From the sequence record SRR20825019_1848: a stretch of 34,072 nucleotides of DNA. One strand, given 5' to 3'. Under the pieces are notes generated by a model that did no database searches, was not told the DNA's origin, and saw only the letters and a list, made by a program, of their open reading frames with translations. The position numbers and the translations under genes are program-made. Positions 2,797 through 16,919 of this stretch are shown here, piece after piece (position 1 is the stretch's first letter; each line of letters starts with the position of its first letter).

Positions 2797-3408
2797 ATGA
2801 CGAACAGAACCCGTAAGTCAACCATCGGGCGCACGCTGGCAACTGTGGCCACAAGTGTTGGCGCTATGGTGATAGCAAGCACAGCCACACAAGCAGCAGG
2901 CAAGCTGGACGTTGTGTGCGCGCAACCCCTTCAAACCGAGGAAGTACGTGACCTGTTGGCCATGCCCATCAGCGAAACCTCGGTGATGAATGATGATACG
3001 CTGCGCGGCTATCATATGTTTGTGCGCGAGCTACGGCACCATTCAAAAGACCGGGTTGAAGATATGGTTTTGGGCAACTGGGACTTCCGACTGGAGCTGA
3101 AGTCAAGCGATGTTGCTTTGATAACAGATGCCAATGCTGAGGTGATCGACAGCCTTGATTTCGATTCCCGGCGTCGTCGCCCTGTGACTATCGGGTATGA
3201 AGGCTCGCAGGGAGGTGCCATGTCGTTCCGCCCAAGCAAGTCTATCCCTACATATTATTTTGCCAGTGCGGATGTACCAGACCGCTACTATAAGTTTCAG
3301 GAAGGCGCAAAGGGCATGCCGTATCTTCTTTATGTGCGGGAGGCGACCTCAAAAGATCCGATCGCTTTTTCTACCAGAATTTACACCTGCGCAAAAACCG
3401 GCAGCTAG
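2797..3408 (+). CDS. Hypothetical exported protein
   Basis: GGAG at 2787-2790 precedes ATG 2797. N-terminus MTNRTRKSTIGRTLATVATSVGAMVIASTATQA looks like a signal peptide. Followed by a terminator. No family recognised. Confidence 0.7.
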   Translation: MTNRTRKSTIGRTLATVATSVGAMVIASTATQAAGKLDVVCAQPLQTEEVRDLLAMPISETSVMNDDTLRGYHMFVRELRHHSKDRVEDMVLGNWDFRLELKSSDVALITDANAEVIDSLDFDSRRRRPVTIGYEGSQGGAMSFRPSKSIPTYYFASADVPDRYYKFQEGAKGMPYLLYVREATSKDPIAFSTRIYTCAKTGS

Positions 3409-9791: not shown

Positions 9792-9834
9792 AAAATATGG
9801 CGGGTTTCTGAACCCTAACGCTCTCATTACATAG
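9792..9834 (+). promoter_or_regulatory. Putative ECF-sigma-dependent promoter motif, copy 1
   Basis: AAAATATGGCGGGTTTCT...CCC...GCTCTCATTACATAG; a closely similar motif lies at 11576-11619. Confidence 0.6.
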
Positions 9835-9866
9835 TGGCGGTGTATCAGGGCGATGGAAAGGGTGCG

Positions 9867-10466
9867 ATGTCGAAGCGTAAAAATAGGATACTGGGTACCT
9901 TTGCCGAATACCGGGATGTTCTGGTGCGCGGTCTGTTGAGGTTGTCTGTAAGGCCATCAGATGTTGATGACATATTACAAGAATCTTTGACACGTACATT
10001 GGAAGCAAATGAAACCCGCGAAATTGATCACCCCAAGAGCTATTTGTTCACGGTGTCTCGCAACATTGTTTTTCGGGACCAGGAACGCAGTGCCCGAGAA
10101 GTACAATGGGAAATTGATGAAGCTATTCTGGAATCGCATACAGCCCCAATTGACCGAGAGCTATATTATAAACAAATGTTAGAGGTGTTTTGGGAGGCTT
10201 TAGAAACGCTACCCCAATCGCACAGACGGGCGATTTTATTGCGCAGAGTATACGGTTTTTCGCACAAGCAAGTAGCCAAGAAAATGGGCTTGTCCGTTAA
10301 TACGGTCGAGAAATATTTCGCACGTGGCATTAAGCGCTGCCAGGATGTCATGGCAGGGCGCGGTTATGGTGTGGAATTTATGGGGCAGGTTTCGGCAAAA
10401 GAAATAAACAAGAAAACAGCGGCGGGTAAGCATGCCAGAAATGGTAAAGGCGACAGAAATGAATGA
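9867..10466 (+). CDS. FecI-like ECF sigma-70 factor
   Basis: Region 2 (DVDDILQE...PKSYLFTVSRN) and region 4 (ALETLPQSHRRAILLRRVYGFSHKQVAKKMGLSVNTVEKY). Start ATG 9867 after GGAAAGG; GTG 9834 is an alternative. Confidence 0.92.
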   Translation: MSKRKNRILGTFAEYRDVLVRGLLRLSVRPSDVDDILQESLTRTLEANETREIDHPKSYLFTVSRNIVFRDQERSAREVQWEIDEAILESHTAPIDRELYYKQMLEVFWEALETLPQSHRRAILLRRVYGFSHKQVAKKMGLSVNTVEKYFARGIKRCQDVMAGRGYGVEFMGQVSAKEINKKTAAGKHARNGKGDRNE

Positions 10467-11532
10467 TGATCCAAGCATCGTGCCCTTGCGGCAAGAAGAG
10501 AAACAAAAGTTACAGGCGGCGGATTGGCTCGCCAAGTTGGACCGCGGCGACTTAACAGCAGAAGAACGTGCAGATTTTACGGACTGGTTGGCGGAAGATC
10601 CGAAGAACAAGGATTCAATTCAGCAGGCGGCGGACCTTTGGTATGGCCTTAATGAACCTTTAAGCAGGCTTGCGCCGCTTATGGCAGGGGAAGGACAGGA
10701 GGAGGGGCGTGCGAATGGTCAGATGCCGCTGGGCCTATTCGGTCCGGCTTTGGCGCGCCTTAAGGTAACGGCTTTTGCAGTGGCTGTCCTGCTCATCGGC
10801 GTTGTTTCAGCGAGTATCTTTTTGTCATCTCCATCTGCAGATGTGGAAAATTATTATGCCACAGCTGTTGGTGAGACGCGGATCGTTGATTTGGTTGATG
10901 GGTCACAGGTTCATCTGAACACCGATAGTATTATTGAGCAGTCATATTCCGGGGAAGAACGCGTTGTTCGTTTGATTGCTGGTGAGGCAATCTTTGATGT
11001 TGCTCATGATAAGGAGAGGCCATTTCTGGTCTACGCAGCGGATGGTGTTATTCGTGCAGTGGGAACACGCTTTGCCGTACGTGTGGCTGAACACAAGGTA
11101 AGTGTGACTGTTACTGACGGCCGAGTTGCACTTGCCCGGCGGTTAGACAAAAGCATGGCTCAAAACAATGTAATGGATGCCTTGGTATATCAAGAAACAC
11201 CTATCATGGTAAGTAAAGGCGGGGCTGCCGACATAGGCAGGACCGAAACCAATGTCCAACAATCTGTTTCTGAGCGTGATCTGGCTAAACGCCTTTCGTG
11301 GACTACAGGTCAGTTGGTTTTCTACGATGAAGACCTGCAGTCTGTCATTGACGAAGTGGCGCGCTATACGACGGTAAAGATCAAGGTGATGGATGACGCC
11401 CTGAAGGATAAGAAAATTACAGGAATTCTTCAAATTGGCGATGTGGATTTGATGCTGGAGGGTGTTGAAGCTGCCTTAAATATCAAGGCAAATCGTATAG
11501 AACCCAACCTTGTGCATTTGACTGCGAGTTAG
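10459..11532 (+). CDS. FecR-like anti-sigma / transmembrane signal transducer
   Basis: AADWLAKL...FTDWLAEDPKN N-domain, TM helix, TAVGETRIVDLVDGSQVHLNTDS, GEAIFDVAHDKERPF, AVGTRFAV, WTTGQLVF. Start overlaps the sigma stop. Confidence 0.95.
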   Translation: MNDDPSIVPLRQEEKQKLQAADWLAKLDRGDLTAEERADFTDWLAEDPKNKDSIQQAADLWYGLNEPLSRLAPLMAGEGQEEGRANGQMPLGLFGPALARLKVTAFAVAVLLIGVVSASIFLSSPSADVENYYATAVGETRIVDLVDGSQVHLNTDSIIEQSYSGEERVVRLIAGEAIFDVAHDKERPFLVYAADGVIRAVGTRFAVRVAEHKVSVTVTDGRVALARRLDKSMAQNNVMDALVYQETPIMVSKGGAADIGRTETNVQQSVSERDLAKRLSWTTGQLVFYDEDLQSVIDEVARYTTVKIKVMDDALKDKKITGILQIGDVDLMLEGVEAALNIKANRIEPNLVHLTAS

Positions 11533-11575: not shown

Positions 11576-11619
11576 AAAATATGTCCGGTTTTTTCACCCA
11601 CCCTGCTCTCATTATATAG
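11576..11619 (+). promoter_or_regulatory. Putative ECF-sigma-dependent promoter motif, copy 2
   Basis: AAAATATGTCCGGTTTTT...CCC...GCTCTCATTATATAG, ending 10 bp before the receptor start. Confidence 0.65.
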
Positions 11620-11629
11620 GTCGTTAGAG

Positions 11630-14278
11630 ATGACGGATTTGAAACAACGGCCGAGGGATAAATGGGGTGGACTACGCAGGTATATTGGGTTTGTTTTAAT
11701 CTTCGTTGGATTAAGCTGTGGAAATGCCGTCGCGGCAATCGCTGATGGTCCAGCACTAAAACACTATACTCTCGATATACCTTCCTCCCGAATTGATGTT
11801 GCTCTCTTTGCCTTGGCGCGAGAAACGGGGAAATCATTAATTATTCCTTCGGGTGATACAGCCACTGAACGCTCTCAGGCACTAAGTGGCACGTACACGT
11901 TGACCGAAGCACTCTCGATAATGCTCAGGGATACAACCCTTGCCGGCGGCCTAACCGAAAACGGGGTCATTGTGATCTCGTTCAATGAAGCCAAAGGGCG
12001 AGGTCAGGCCACAGAGCAGGGCCGGGAGGAAAACACAATGAATAATAGCAAGCTGAAAAAGAGCTTACTGGCAAGTGTTGCCAGTTTCCTGTTTGGTGCA
12101 GGGGGTGCGCATGCGCAGGACAATGCTACGAATAGTAGCGCCTTTGACCTGGACGAGATTGTGGTGACAGCTACTCGTCGAGAATCGAGCGTGCAGTCAA
12201 CAGCGTTGAGCATTAGTGCGTTTGGCGGCAAAAGCCTTGAAGAAAAAGGCTATAATAGTATTGGCCAGTTTATCGATACTGTGCCCGGCGTTACAGCTAA
12301 TGACGAAGGTGGCGGTTCAAACAGAATTATCATCCGTAATATCAATACTTCCACGCAAGAGTCAGGCAGTTCGTCGGTAGCCACATATTTTGATGACTTT
12401 GCCCTCACTACAACCAGCTTCTCGACAGCAGCGGATATCCGTCTGGTTGATGTGAGCCGTGTGGAGGTGTTGAAAGGCCCGCAGGGCACACTTTTTGGCC
12501 GTAGTGCCATGGGCGGCATAGTGCGTTATATTTCCAATAAGCCCGACACTGAGGCTTTTGCCGGCGGTCTCAATACTTATCTTTCTGATACTGCGGACGG
12601 CGGCTCCAATTATGGCGGGCATGGATATTTGAATATACCTGTTGCGGAGAACCTGGCTGTCCGCATGACAGGCTATTATTACGACAACGCAGGCTTCATC
12701 GATAATGTGGAGTTGGGCATTGACGATATTAACGAAGAAAAAACATGGGGTGGCAGACTTGCGGCACACTGGGACGTAACAGACACCTTCAGCGCTGATT
12801 TCACCTATCTCTATCAGAGCCAGAATGCAGGGCCTAACTCTGTCACCACAACTCGCACCCCTGGAGATTTGAACATAGCAGGTGACGAAGGGCCTGATGT
12901 TCCCTTTGATCTGAATGCGCGTACTGCAATTGGTGGTGTAGTTGAGGAACGCGACAATACGTATGAGTTTTTCAATCTAAAACTCGAAAAAGATTTTGAG
13001 GGTTTTACGACAACATTTTTGGCGACACGCAATAAGCTGAAGTTCGACTTTACGTTTGATCAGAGAGAGTTCGTTGGCTTTAGGAGTGGCTGTGCCTGTG
13101 ATATTCCAGCCGATGGCAACCCTTCTCAGGATACAGAAACGGATATCCTCGAGTTACGCTTTGTGTCTTCCAGCGATGGCTTTTTTGATTGGATATTCGG
13201 CCTTTATTATGAGGATGAAGAAACAGCCATTAAGCAGTTCAATATTTATAAAGGACCTGATCAGATACTGTTTGGTCTAATACCGTTCACCGACGGAGAT
13301 GTGGCCCTTGACTCTATCGATGCGATGAATGGTGAAGAACAAGCGGTGTACGGTGAACTGGGCCTGAACTTTACAGCCGCAACCAAGTTCACGGTTGGAT
13401 ATCGGCGCTCTCATGTTGAATTTGACAGGCTGGGCATCAAAGCGGATGGTATCTTTAATGCGTTTAACGGAGCAGGTGCCCTTGTCGGACTTCCTTTTGA
13501 TACCAGTGAAAATGTTAACACCTTCAAGTTTTCGCTAGAGCATCAGTTGAACGACGATGTATTTGCCTATGCTACGGCCACCTCAGGGTATCGTCGGGGC
13601 GGCTTCAATTTGCCAACAGCAATATCTGAATTTTCCACTTTTGATTCCGATACTCTCTGGAACTATGAGTTAGGTATCAAATCAACATGGTTGAATGGTC
13701 GTTTGATCGCCAACCTTTCAGCTTATTTGATTGACTATACAGACATCCAGCTAACTGTTCAGGACCCGATTACCTTTGGCAGAACGACACAAAACGTTGG
13801 TAAAGCGCAGGTGACAGGCCTTGAATTCAGCATGGTGTTCCAAGCCAGCGAAGCTCTCAACCTTTCTTTCAATGGTGCGCTCAGCAACCCTAAACTGAAA
13901 GAAGATGTGCCGGGTGGTGTGTCAGGTAAAAATGGTGATCGCCTTCCTGGTTCAGCGAAGGAAAGTTTTGCGATTACAGCTGATTGGGCTCGGCCGCTGA
14001 ACGATGAATTGTCGCTATATAGTATCGTGACATACAAATATGTTGGCGAGCGATTGAATGACTTTAACCTGGATCTTGATGTTGCTCTGCCATCTTATGG
14101 TCTCGTCGATGCCCGTATAGGGCTGCGCAGTGTCGATGGGTATAGTATCTCTTTGTTTGCAAACAACTTATTTGACGAAAAGGTACTGTACGGCATCGAC
14201 CGTCAAGGTCCGTTTTTTGAGGCAGCGAGTACAAATCGTCCGCGTACGATTGGCCTTAATCTCGCATATGATTTCTAA
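11630..14278 (+). CDS. TonB-dependent outer-membrane transducer (STN signalling domain + plug + beta-barrel)
   Basis: Signal peptide; STN-like YTLDIPSSRIDVALFALARETG...LSGTYTLTEALSIMLRDT; TonB box LDEIVVTA; plug motif RVEVLKGPQGTLFGRSAMGGIV; C-terminal ANNLFDE...PRTIGLNLAYDF ending in Phe. Confidence 0.96.
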   Translation: MTDLKQRPRDKWGGLRRYIGFVLIFVGLSCGNAVAAIADGPALKHYTLDIPSSRIDVALFALARETGKSLIIPSGDTATERSQALSGTYTLTEALSIMLRDTTLAGGLTENGVIVISFNEAKGRGQATEQGREENTMNNSKLKKSLLASVASFLFGAGGAHAQDNATNSSAFDLDEIVVTATRRESSVQSTALSISAFGGKSLEEKGYNSIGQFIDTVPGVTANDEGGGSNRIIIRNINTSTQESGSSSVATYFDDFALTTTSFSTAADIRLVDVSRVEVLKGPQGTLFGRSAMGGIVRYISNKPDTEAFAGGLNTYLSDTADGGSNYGGHGYLNIPVAENLAVRMTGYYYDNAGFIDNVELGIDDINEEKTWGGRLAAHWDVTDTFSADFTYLYQSQNAGPNSVTTTRTPGDLNIAGDEGPDVPFDLNARTAIGGVVEERDNTYEFFNLKLEKDFEGFTTTFLATRNKLKFDFTFDQREFVGFRSGCACDIPADGNPSQDTETDILELRFVSSSDGFFDWIFGLYYEDEETAIKQFNIYKGPDQILFGLIPFTDGDVALDSIDAMNGEEQAVYGELGLNFTAATKFTVGYRRSHVEFDRLGIKADGIFNAFNGAGALVGLPFDTSENVNTFKFSLEHQLNDDVFAYATATSGYRRGGFNLPTAISEFSTFDSDTLWNYELGIKSTWLNGRLIANLSAYLIDYTDIQLTVQDPITFGRTTQNVGKAQVTGLEFSMVFQASEALNLSFNGALSNPKLKEDVPGGVSGKNGDRLPGSAKESFAITADWARPLNDELSLYSIVTYKYVGERLNDFNLDLDVALPSYGLVDARIGLRSVDGYSISLFANNLFDEKVLYGIDRQGPFFEAASTNRPRTIGLNLAYDF
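12024..12115 (+). other. Internal in-frame Shine-Dalgarno, ATG and second signal peptide within the receptor gene
   Basis: GGGAGG (12024-12029), 8 nt, then ATG 12038 (Met137) starting MNNSKLKKSLLASVASFLFGAGGAHA|QD. Confidence 0.75.
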
Positions 14279-14421: not shown

Positions 14422-15495
14422 ATGATGAAATACTGTCTTTTTCACCCAATTATAACATTGGCCTTGAGCTTGTTTGCCATTGGTGCGCAAGCAAACTCAC
14501 CACAAGATATTTTGCCAGATACCTCAGAGAACCGCGCTCGTGTAGCTGCAGCATATGAACAGTATTTGAATATTGATAGAGAGCATGGGCGTTTCATTGA
14601 GGTCAATGGCATCAAAATGCATTATCTGGAGTGGGGAGACGATAGCGGTGTGCCGCTTATTTGGTCACATGGATACAGTAGCACAGGATTTGAGTTGGTG
14701 AATGTCGCTGACCAGCTTGTTGAAGCCGGTTATCATGTCTATTCCATTTCATATCGCGGCCACGGTCACACTCAAGTTGACAACTATGAGTTTTCCCTCG
14801 CGCATATTGCCGATGATATTGCCGCGATGATGGATAAACTTGGCATTGAAAAAGCGGTTATTGGCGGCCTTTCTCTGGGGGGAGGTGTGACGACCACCTT
14901 TTATGAAAACTATCCAGAGCGCGTGCTCGGTATCGTTCTGGAAGATGGTGGCGCGGATGCTGTGCAGCTCCGGACAGAAATTATGTACGAGCAGATGAAA
15001 GCCATGTTGGAGCATATGCCTGCGATGCAAATGCCAGTGTTTCAAGACCGTTTTGCAGGAATAAAGTTTATGGCGAACTTATATGTTCCGGGATGGGGTG
15101 GTGAATTTCCCAAATTATCAATGGTTGCTCTTCATTCCTTTGTGGTTGAAAAAAAAGACGGTACGTTTGGCATGCATCATGATGATGCCAAAATGTTCGA
15201 TGCCTTTGGTGAGGCGGCAATTAATCCCGGCCTAACCCATAGGCTTCCCTTGCTGCACCAATCCTGGCGCCGTGTTCATCCTTATATCACATACCGTAAT
15301 CTGTCAGTTCCGATGGTCATTATTGACCCAACAGGGGACCTGTTTGACGCGACGGGGTCCTTTGAAAAACTGCGTGATATGCACCCCGACCTGATCACAC
15401 TTGTGGACTATCCAAACACCCCTCATGCGGCCCATCCCATGCGTCCAGAATGGTTTGTGCGGGATTTAGAAGCCTTACTTGAGAGGATTAAATAA
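14422..15495 (+). CDS. Secreted alpha/beta-fold hydrolase
   Basis: Signal peptide (…AIGAQA|N), MHYLEWG, WSHG oxyanion motif, RGHGHT, nucleophile elbow GLSLGG, C-terminal His (TPHAAH). Confidence 0.92.
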   Translation: MMKYCLFHPIITLALSLFAIGAQANSPQDILPDTSENRARVAAAYEQYLNIDREHGRFIEVNGIKMHYLEWGDDSGVPLIWSHGYSSTGFELVNVADQLVEAGYHVYSISYRGHGHTQVDNYEFSLAHIADDIAAMMDKLGIEKAVIGGLSLGGGVTTTFYENYPERVLGIVLEDGGADAVQLRTEIMYEQMKAMLEHMPAMQMPVFQDRFAGIKFMANLYVPGWGGEFPKLSMVALHSFVVEKKDGTFGMHHDDAKMFDAFGEAAINPGLTHRLPLLHQSWRRVHPYITYRNLSVPMVIIDPTGDLFDATGSFEKLRDMHPDLITLVDYPNTPHAAHPMRPEWFVRDLEALLERIK

Positions 15496-16919
15496 TGAAA
15501 TCGTATCTGTATCTCGCGGTATGTACCGCTGTTGGAACCATATCTTTGCAAGCTCAGGCAAACGAGCACCAGGACATGGCAACGATTACTAAGGAAATGG
15601 CGGCGGGTGCGGGTGCGAAACTGGCCTGTTCAGGTGTGTTCCTGCAAAACCGTACCCCTGAAAATGTGGTTCAACGTGATCTGAGGCCCATTGCATATCC
15701 CTTGTTAAAGGATGTTGAGTTTGGCTTTGATCAGAACACCAAGATAGCCACGGCAATTGCGGGCGATGTAAAGCGATCTGCCCTGTACCGCCCCGGGGTG
15801 GGGTGCACACTTATGTTGGATAACAGCACCCCGGACCAACTGCTTGAGCAAGCAAAAGAAATCGCTGATAATTTTAGGCCCCGACGTGCGCAGGAGTGGC
15901 CTTTAGGCGATGAAGTGTCTTTGGACAGGAACCGTAGAGGCGTTGACTGGAAAAAACTTGATGCTGCTGTAGATGCGGCTTTTGTTGATGCTTCTGAACA
16001 TCAGACCGTTGATACACGGGCTGTCCTCGTTGTCTACCAGGGGAAGATTGTTGCAGAGAAATATGCTGAAGGCTTTAATCAAGAAAGCCGGTTTTTAGCG
16101 TGGTCAGCCAGCAAAAGTGTTGCCAGTGCGCTGATTGGAACAATGGTAACCAGGAATAAGCTTGCGCTAGACGAAGCGGCACCGGTTTCAGAGTGGTCTG
16201 CAGAAGGTGATGCACGCGGTCAAATTACGCTTCGTAGTTTGCTGAATATGACAAGTGGGCTTGAGTTTACAGAGCCCTATATTCCAGGGAACGACAGCAC
16301 GAACATGTTGTTTCGTGAAGGATATATGGCGAAATACGCAGCGAATAAGCCTGCTGAAACAGCGCCTGATACAAAGTGGTATTATTCATCGGGAACGACA
16401 AACATATTGTCTCATATCCTGTTTGATGCAGTAGGGGGCACTCTGCAAGACGTACACACCTATGCCTGGGATCATTTCTTTAAGCCAGTGGGCATGACAA
16501 GTGCTGTGTTCGAGCCGGATGTGTCCGGTTCGCATGTTGGTAGTTCATACTTTTATGCCACAGCCCAGGATTGGGCACGTTTTGGTCTATTATTTTTGAA
16601 CGAAGGCATGGTTGGTGACAAGCAGGTCTTGTCTAGAGAGTGGGTGGCTTATACGCGATCAGTTACACCGCTGGCTCCAAAAGGTATGTATGGCGCACAG
16701 TTTTGGCATAATCGTGGCAGCCTGGATAATGAAGAGGACCGTATGTTAGTTGATGCACCCAAGGACCTGTTTATGGCCGCAGGGTATGCGGGGCAACATA
16801 TTGCGATTGTTCCCTCGAAAGATGCCGTTGTGATACGGTTTGGCTGGACGAACAGGGGAGAAAAGTTCGATGTCAATAAGCATTTCTCAGAAATACTGAA
16901 TGCGTTACCCGAGAAATAA
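15495..16919 (+). CDS. Secreted serine hydrolase, beta-lactamase/NylB-like family
   Basis: Signal peptide, WSASKS (SxxK), LLNMTSGL, YYSSG, DWARFG, AAGYAGQ. TAATG coupling to the upstream gene. Confidence 0.92.
   Translation: MKSYLYLAVCTAVGTISLQAQANEHQDMATITKEMAAGAGAKLACSGVFLQNRTPENVVQRDLRPIAYPLLKDVEFGFDQNTKIATAIAGDVKRSALYRPGVGCTLMLDNSTPDQLLEQAKEIADNFRPRRAQEWPLGDEVSLDRNRRGVDWKKLDAAVDAAFVDASEHQTVDTRAVLVVYQGKIVAEKYAEGFNQESRFLAWSASKSVASALIGTMVTRNKLALDEAAPVSEWSAEGDARGQITLRSLLNMTSGLEFTEPYIPGNDSTNMLFREGYMAKYAANKPAETAPDTKWYYSSGTTNILSHILFDAVGGTLQDVHTYAWDHFFKPVGMTSAVFEPDVSGSHVGSSYFYATAQDWARFGLLFLNEGMVGDKQVLSREWVAYTRSVTPLAPKGMYGAQFWHNRGSLDNEEDRMLVDAPKDLFMAAGYAGQHIAIVPSKDAVVIRFGWTNRGEKFDVNKHFSEILNALPEK

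Follow-up and report, generated by a model that had tools for sequence, protein, structure and literature searches.

Whether a single gene can give rise to both a signalling receptor and a receptor dedicated to transport is a question raised by sequence record SRR20825019_1848 (34,072 nucleotides (nt), one strand, read 5' to 3'; this whole stretch is referred to below as the window). According to Pfam matches and the list of open reading frames (ORFs), three plus-strand genes stand in tandem in the window and encode an extracytoplasmic function (ECF) sigma factor, a FecR-like sigma regulator and a TonB-dependent receptor. Cell-surface signalling is one of the principal ways in which Gram-negative bacteria detect the substances they import. 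In the receptor gene, the linker between an STN-type signalling domain and the TonB box contains a Shine-Dalgarno (SD) sequence, an in-frame start codon (Met137) and what appears to be a complete Sec-type signal peptide. An earlier reading made from the letters of the DNA alone (the sequence-only reading) had listed signal peptide 1, an STN-like domain, a linker, GGGAGG, Met137, a second leader and a TonB box, and every one of these elements was recovered when the sequence was re-examined. Because the embedded SD, start codon and leader were found to be conserved at the DNA level, the gene probably makes a signalling and a transport-only receptor, with internal initiation supplying the latter beside the full-length transducer.

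Embedded start site, second leader and signalling domain

The internal GGGAGG is separated from the ATG of Met137 by a spacer of 8 nt. Duplex energies with the anti-SD sequence, recomputed with the 3' end of the genome's own 16S rRNA, were -10.3 kcal/mol at Met137 and -3.7 kcal/mol at Met1, in agreement with the claim of the sequence-only reading that the inner site has a much better SD. Genes for STN-less receptors in the same genome provided a direct comparison: in five of seven, SD pairing of -10.3 to -14.3 was found ahead of an ATG and leader, and in one of them (L002) the sequence AGGAGGAAAAC ahead of the ATG is close to GGGAGGAAAACACA ahead of the inner ATG. By these measures, the inner site looks like the genuine receptor gene starts of its own genome. 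Translation from Met137 (ORF 12038-14278) would yield a precursor of 746 amino acids (aa).

The second leader (MNNSKLKKSLLASVASFLFGAGGAHA, aa 137-162, followed by QD from residue 163) has, by inspection of its sequence, three Lys residues, a 15-residue h-region and then A-H-A. Its 11-residue Kyte-Doolittle mean of 2.07 compares with 1.68-2.47 for receptor leaders encoded in the same genome, and the first positions of NCBIfam full-length receptor models align to aa 143-160. Assignment as a Sec leader was based on this n/h/c layout, on the model starts and on likeness to own-genome receptor leaders, among which those of STN-less receptors resemble it. In its own genome, the module was confined to the receptor gene at 11630-14278. 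A perfect 8-bp hairpin, ACTGGCAA GTG TTGCCAGT, was also observed at 12067-12085 (+), 27 nt past the inner ATG and within the leader coding region.

The domain that precedes the linker matched Pfam STN (PF07660) only weakly (E=0.017, below the cut-off), while the N-terminus of the NCBIfam FecA model aligned to aa 22-111 with an E-value of 3.7e-8. An AlphaFold2 model of aa 44-187, for which an alignment of 22 relatives served as input, showed block-mean predicted local distance difference test (pLDDT) values of 86-98 across aa 44-119; over the second leader, pLDDT was below 50 and no secondary structure was predicted. When the model was compared with the PDB by Foldseek, ranks 1-11 were taken by signalling domains of PupB (entries of the PupR complex), FpvA, FoxA, FecA and PupA, with E-values of 2.5e-6 to 6e-4. 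Ten of these 11 chains aligned over the signalling domain alone (root-mean-square deviation 1.3-1.8 Å over 71-75 residues). The STN-like assignment of the sequence-only reading, weak in Pfam, was thereby confirmed by AlphaFold2 and Foldseek. On this structural comparison, aa 44-119 are predicted to be a true signalling domain, and the locus would therefore be a cell-surface signalling unit.

Conservation of the internal start among relatives

A protein search with aa 1-260 retrieved 92 proteins. Many STN-bearing homologs, with identities from 76% down to ~29%, carried four elements between the STN and the TonB box: Met or Val, a segment rich in Lys/Arg, a hydrophobic stretch and A-x-A-Q-D/E. 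Other homologs combined an STN with a plain acidic linker, and further homologs without an STN had an ordinary leader equally far from the TonB box. DNA searches were performed with the N-terminal 187 aa and subsequently with a 22-row alignment of the module (A1). Matches were found in 15 of 41 relatives, in 33 of 401 genomes of the class (at 1e-8 with the module alignment, mostly to the STN only) and in 10 of 401 genomes of the phylum (at 1e-14), the last set including full-module matches in another class.

From loci L001-L085, 72 STN-bearing loci were analyzed, after removal of two duplicates (L040 of L001 and L080 of L003) and of L034, in which a stop codon splits the STN. These loci were sorted by a rule blind to start codons, which asked for a Kyte-Doolittle mean of at least 1.8 over 11 residues, no more than 48 residues past the STN. 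By this rule, a second hydrophobic segment was assigned to 35 loci, and 37 were classed as plain; L044 passed though not leader-like, L071 narrowly failed though leader-like, and both were kept where the rule had placed them. With L044 left out, the 34 remaining second-segment loci formed 23 clusters at 60% STN identity, with a mean STN identity of 38%, at which synonymous sites should be saturated. Two loci, L043 and L047, matched the module profile over its full length without a clear hydrophobic segment.

In each of the 35 second-segment loci, an ATG, GTG or TTG stands in frame ahead of the hydrophobic stretch, at a distance of 7-21 codons. SD pairing reached -7 or stronger in 26 of them, and -10 or stronger in 15, compared with chances of a start-capable codon with such pairing of 0.020 and 0.004, respectively, per 15-codon window further downstream in the same ORFs. 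Median pairing was -8.3 against a background of -2.6. The internal SD and start exceed chance. When the 16S tail of the genome that carries the receptor gene at 11630-14278 was used, the counts at -7 and -10 were the same and the median was -8.2. Among the plain-linker loci, 2 of 37 reached -7, and one of these was L071, which by eye has a second leader. Alignment of the 35 loci on the start codon gave the consensus GGGAGGA at positions -11 to -5, with G at -11 in 22/35, G at -10 in 31/35, G at -9 in 30/35, A at -8 in 28/35, G at -7 in 24/35, G at -6 in 20/35 and A at -5 in 25/35.

The strongest evidence came from synonymous sites, because these separate DNA from protein. Where the residue at the start position was Val, its codon was GTG in 12 of 12 cases, compared with 27.3% of the 1077 Val codons in the same ORFs. 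Arg at codon -4 was encoded by CGG or AGG in 16 of 16 cases (background 20.0%) and Glu at codon -3 by GAG in 22 of 24 (background 36.5%). The residue at codon -4 varied (R 16, E 7, G 5, K 2, others), with the G bases kept, and in L084 a Leu at the start position was encoded by TTG, after AGGGAGGA. Comparison of these sequences indicated that the SD, start codon and leader are under nucleotide-level selection across many diverged relatives. Nucleotide-level conservation of the internal SD, ATG and leader in homologs, which the sequence-only reading had named as a check on its proposal, was thus found, with a synonymous-codon bias in addition.

The long form is kept in relatives as well. In all 35 loci the frame was open from leader 1 through the barrel and a hydrophobic leader 1 stood before the STN, and in 31 of 35 a FecR-like gene lay directly upstream. 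The inner SD was stronger than the best SD candidate of the outer start, itself chosen for strength, in 24 of 34 loci.

A split arrangement, with a separate STN gene before the receptor, was not encountered, although no dedicated search for shorter proteins was made. Three short STN frames were examined for this arrangement, two of which (L087 and L088) end at contig ends. The third, L086 at 2882-3274 (-) (G139:C10), is a free-standing protein of 130 aa that consists of a leader and an STN, with no receptor gene after it.

Proposed mechanism and alternative explanations

In the proposed mechanism, initiation at Met1, with its weak SD, would yield a full-length precursor comprising leader 1, STN, linker, TonB box, plug and barrel. 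The ~55-residue linker of this long form would carry the second leader as a passenger, and the protein would be able to contact the FecR-like protein; an STN and a FecR C-domain are a textbook pair. Initiation at the inner ATG would give an ordinary receptor precursor, exported via Sec by its own leader, and cleavage between AHA and QD would leave a transport-only receptor starting at Gln163. Both products would be made, the short one presumably in larger amounts. Since an excess of signalling domain has been reported to inhibit signalling, the short form may allow induction to raise transport capacity while sparing the FecR-like protein a surplus of signalling domains. Internal initiation, one of the options in the sequence-only reading, was strongly supported by the comparison of DNA sequences; the role that the same option assigned to it, setting the ratio of uptake to signalling, may be regarded as a plausible extension. 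For the wider group, the balance tips slightly towards a large, mostly marine set of proteobacterial receptors being encoded by nested two-in-one genes, in which a weak outer start gives few signalling and a strong inner start many transport-only receptors, with the ratio of sensing to uptake hard-wired in the mRNA and the FecR-like regulator not flooded.

Two receptor forms could also arise by processing. If only, or mainly, the long form were translated, cleavage between AHA and QD by signal peptidase I or another periplasmic protease would free the STN for the FecR-like protein and leave an STN-less receptor. Full-size and domain-less forms of FoxA occur in a prc mutant of Pseudomonas aeruginosa, and the released domain has been proposed to protect FoxR (passages of PMC11637429). 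Consistent with cleavage, many homologs have a c-region of matching type (small-x-small, then Q-D/E) after the hydrophobic segment; however, its conservation does not discriminate, because the short form needs this c-region anyway. Processing leaves unexplained that the start position is always ATG, GTG or TTG, that Val is always GTG and that the SD is kept by synonymous choice. Sec topology further suggests that the second leader, as a passenger of the long form, would cross the translocon with the N-terminus already outside, which is not the usual orientation for signal peptidase I. As the explanation of the conserved elements, processing was therefore considered improbable, although it can coexist with internal initiation. 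The sequence speaks neither for nor against cleavage at the second AHA site with release of a free STN, a further option of the sequence-only reading, to which the two forms of FoxA lend some plausibility. A role of the segment in the long protein, in which it and its basic flank would act as a functional linker (membrane-binding, FecR-contacting or a longer periplasmic tether) without meaningful use of the internal start, would fit a sequence unusually conserved for a leader (consensus KxSLLASISAxxFGA among relatives), a module that travels with very different barrels, and an STN-to-TonB-box linker of ~55-60 residues, longer than in plain-type sequences. Such a role does not predict the synonymous-site bias at the SD and start codon, AlphaFold2 showed neither structure nor contact for the segment, and in position and hydrophobicity the segment matches ordinary receptor leaders; it is quite unlikely to be the whole explanation.

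The embedded unit could, finally, be a relic: an STN cassette fused before a complete receptor gene, whose old 5' end is decaying without function. Its close likeness to the 5' ends of ordinary receptor genes in the same genome fits a fusion origin, and the state of L043 and L047 may reflect decay. Set against this are the start codon and leader present in 35/35 loci despite the mean STN identity of 38%, with the SD weak in some, and the retention of the elements in another class, in named proteins from alpha- and gammaproteobacteria and, within a library of 1.84 billion proteins, in no fewer than 100 clusters. As start codons and SDs free of selection would have been lost over such divergence, a functionless relic seems very unlikely. 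Nor are the start regions of relatives near-identical DNA, as a single, recent, horizontally spread cassette would leave them. The recent fusion of an STN cassette to an intact receptor gene, another option of the sequence-only reading, is contradicted by retention of the module at this divergence, in other classes and on very different barrels; an ancient fusion is a reasonable origin of the module.

Some observations weigh against internal initiation or limit the evidence for it. Loci from another class (L072-L076 and L081) keep an ATG and leader with weak SD pairing of -2.7 to -5.8, and initiation there may not necessarily rely on an SD. SD-like sequences within genes can have other causes, although those do not explain the start-codon bias. 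The loci are related, and nominal probabilities of the synonymous tests are therefore too small. Because the second leader is unusually conserved for a signal peptide, it may have an extra, protein-level role within the long form.

As separate observations on individual loci, the upstream sequence in L072-L076 and L081 is A-rich, and L034 (G022:C92) has a TGA in the STN, 3' of which the SD, ATG, leader and receptor are intact over 590 codons. L034 would fit use of the inner start and is perhaps a natural STN-dead gene; it is a single case and may be a sequencing error.

Distribution, known systems and locus surroundings

A search of 1.84 billion cluster representatives with the A1 profile returned 11431 proteins at a cut-off of E<=1e-3; tightening it to 1e-10 left 1318, and at 1e-30 there were 100, a figure indicating that the design is a class rather than a curiosity. 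Among the best 150 matches, 142 had the hydrophobic segment by the rule applied to the loci, 7 fell just below the threshold and 1 was too short. The expected window of those 142 contained Met in 102, only Val in 35, only Leu in 4 and none of these in 1. Named proteins with a second leader came from Parahaliea mediterranea, Chromatocurvus sp., a Kordiimonadaceae bacterium and Robiginitomaculum sp., and the second leader was present in proteins labelled alpha- and gammaproteobacterial. In L013 and L079, the STN domains are 50% identical, and the barrels align over 37 residues only. The occurrence of the STN and inner-start module on different barrel subfamilies (L011-L085) suggests either shuffling of the module as one unit or great age.

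The locus has the features of the transducer class: an adjacent ECF sigma factor and FecR-type regulator, an STN-fold domain, a plug and a barrel. As in the systems of FecA (Escherichia coli), FpvA and FoxA (P. aeruginosa), PupB (Pseudomonas capeferrum) and HasR (Serratia marcescens), genes for an ECF sigma factor, a FecR-like protein and the receptor stand in a row, and the STN-fold domain precedes the TonB box, plug and barrel. The locus differs from known transducers in a Pfam STN score below the cut-off and in downstream genes for secreted hydrolases rather than iron genes. Whereas in known transducers a plain linker connects the signalling domain with the TonB box (general knowledge, and passages of PMC9249621), the linker here includes an entire SD, a start codon and a predicted Sec leader. 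FoxA is the closest parallel for two forms: it occurs with and without its signalling domain, which is not needed for transport (passages of Wettstadt et al., 2024, PMC11637429). For its short form, periplasmic proteolysis by CtpA has been proposed, in a model in which the released domain is what matters (same passages). Full-length and domain-less transducer forms are thus shared with FoxA, here as a prediction from sequence; unlike in FoxA, a second translation start is indicated, which would yield no free domain. At the level of translation, the nested-gene design would parallel the removal of the signalling domain by proteolysis proposed for FoxA.

In-frame internal initiation that results in two isoforms is known for infB, clpB and cheA. 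Internal starts have also been mapped in E. coli by Ribo-RET (part of bioRxiv 10.1101/520783), and Caulobacter CCNA_02448 is another case of internal in-frame initiation (part of PMC4117421). The present gene resembles these in having a second in-frame start with its own ribosome-binding site inside a longer ORF; unlike in them, a predicted export leader follows the inner start, and both predicted isoforms would be exported via separate leaders. In the full-text literature covered, which included portions of PMC1790865 and PMC9249621 and did not extend to subscription-only papers and supplements, no TonB-dependent receptor was described as having a second leader or an internal start. Transducers and internal starts are each known; that literature contained no case of the two combined with a second export leader. 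Active debate surrounds the stoichiometry of receptor, signalling domain and anti-sigma factor (passages of PMC11637429). If the inner start is used, signalling and transport forms would be separable at translation, and SD or start-codon mutants would provide a clean genetic handle on the effects of excess signalling domain. Annotation is affected as well: gene callers assign a single product to such a gene, and the second leader would go unnoticed or be taken for a transmembrane helix.

Features of the receptor gene and the genes before it in the window
Feature	Coordinates	Strand	Evidence
ECF sigma factor gene	9834..10466	+	Pfam Sigma70_r4_2, Sigma70_r2, Sigma70_ECF; ORF list
FecR-like sigma regulator (anti-sigma factor) gene	10432..11532	+	Pfam DUF4880, FecR, FecR_C
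24-nt motif 5' of receptor gene	11596..11619	+	Second copy at 9811-9834; 0 in 100 shuffles
Long ORF, full-length TonB-dependent transducer precursor, 882 aa	11630..14278	+	Pfam plug and barrel
Signal peptide 1, aa 1-38 (approximate)	11630..11743	+	Sequence
STN-fold signalling domain (predicted), aa 44-119	11759..11986	+	AlphaFold2, Foldseek, NCBIfam FecA model
Internal Shine-Dalgarno GGGAGG, within Arg-Glu-Glu codons	12024..12029	+	Sequence; duplex energy -10.3
Internal start ATG (putative), Met137	12038..12040	+	Sequence; 35/35 relatives with ATG/GTG/TTG at the site
Second Sec-type signal peptide (predicted), aa 137-162, predicted cleavage between AHA and QD	12038..12115	+	Sequence
TonB box LDEIVVTA, aa 174-181	12149..12172	+	Sequence; aligns with homologs' motif
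Plug domain, aa 188-297	12191..12520	+	Pfam PF07715, E 1e-17, above cut-off
Beta-barrel, aa 388-882	12791..14275	+	Pfam PF00593, E 1e-31, aa 388-847, above cut-off

Signal peptide 1 has a basic N-terminus followed by a hydrophobic stretch at aa 19-36. A Cys at aa 30 made a lipoprotein a candidate reading of this leader, which was rejected as the Cys is not kept in close homologs. In the majority of the 92 homologs, the motif aligned with LDEIVVTA is xEIVVTA, a consensus that is taken here to be that of the TonB box.

The window contains two copies of a 24-nt motif, ACCC..C.GCTCTCATTAYATAG: one lies just 5' of the gene for the ECF sigma factor, the other 11 nt before the first ATG of the receptor gene. 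The motif is a candidate common promoter, which may be read by the ECF sigma factor itself; transcription beginning just past it would give the long form a very short leader. The GTG listed as start of the sigma ORF (9834) shares one base with the motif and has no SD (pairing +1.9). The ATG at 9867 (MSKRKN...) is the more likely sigma start. A scan of the plus strand at 11630-12037 for sigma-70 promoters, with other promoter types outside its scope, found no site, and across the scanned region such sites were at chance level (7 found, 6.9 expected).

Directly 3' of the receptor gene, at 14422-16919 (+), lie genes for an alpha/beta hydrolase and a beta-lactamase-family serine hydrolase, both with leader-like N-termini. 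Because of these downstream genes, the substrate of the receptor is probably something other than an iron chelate.

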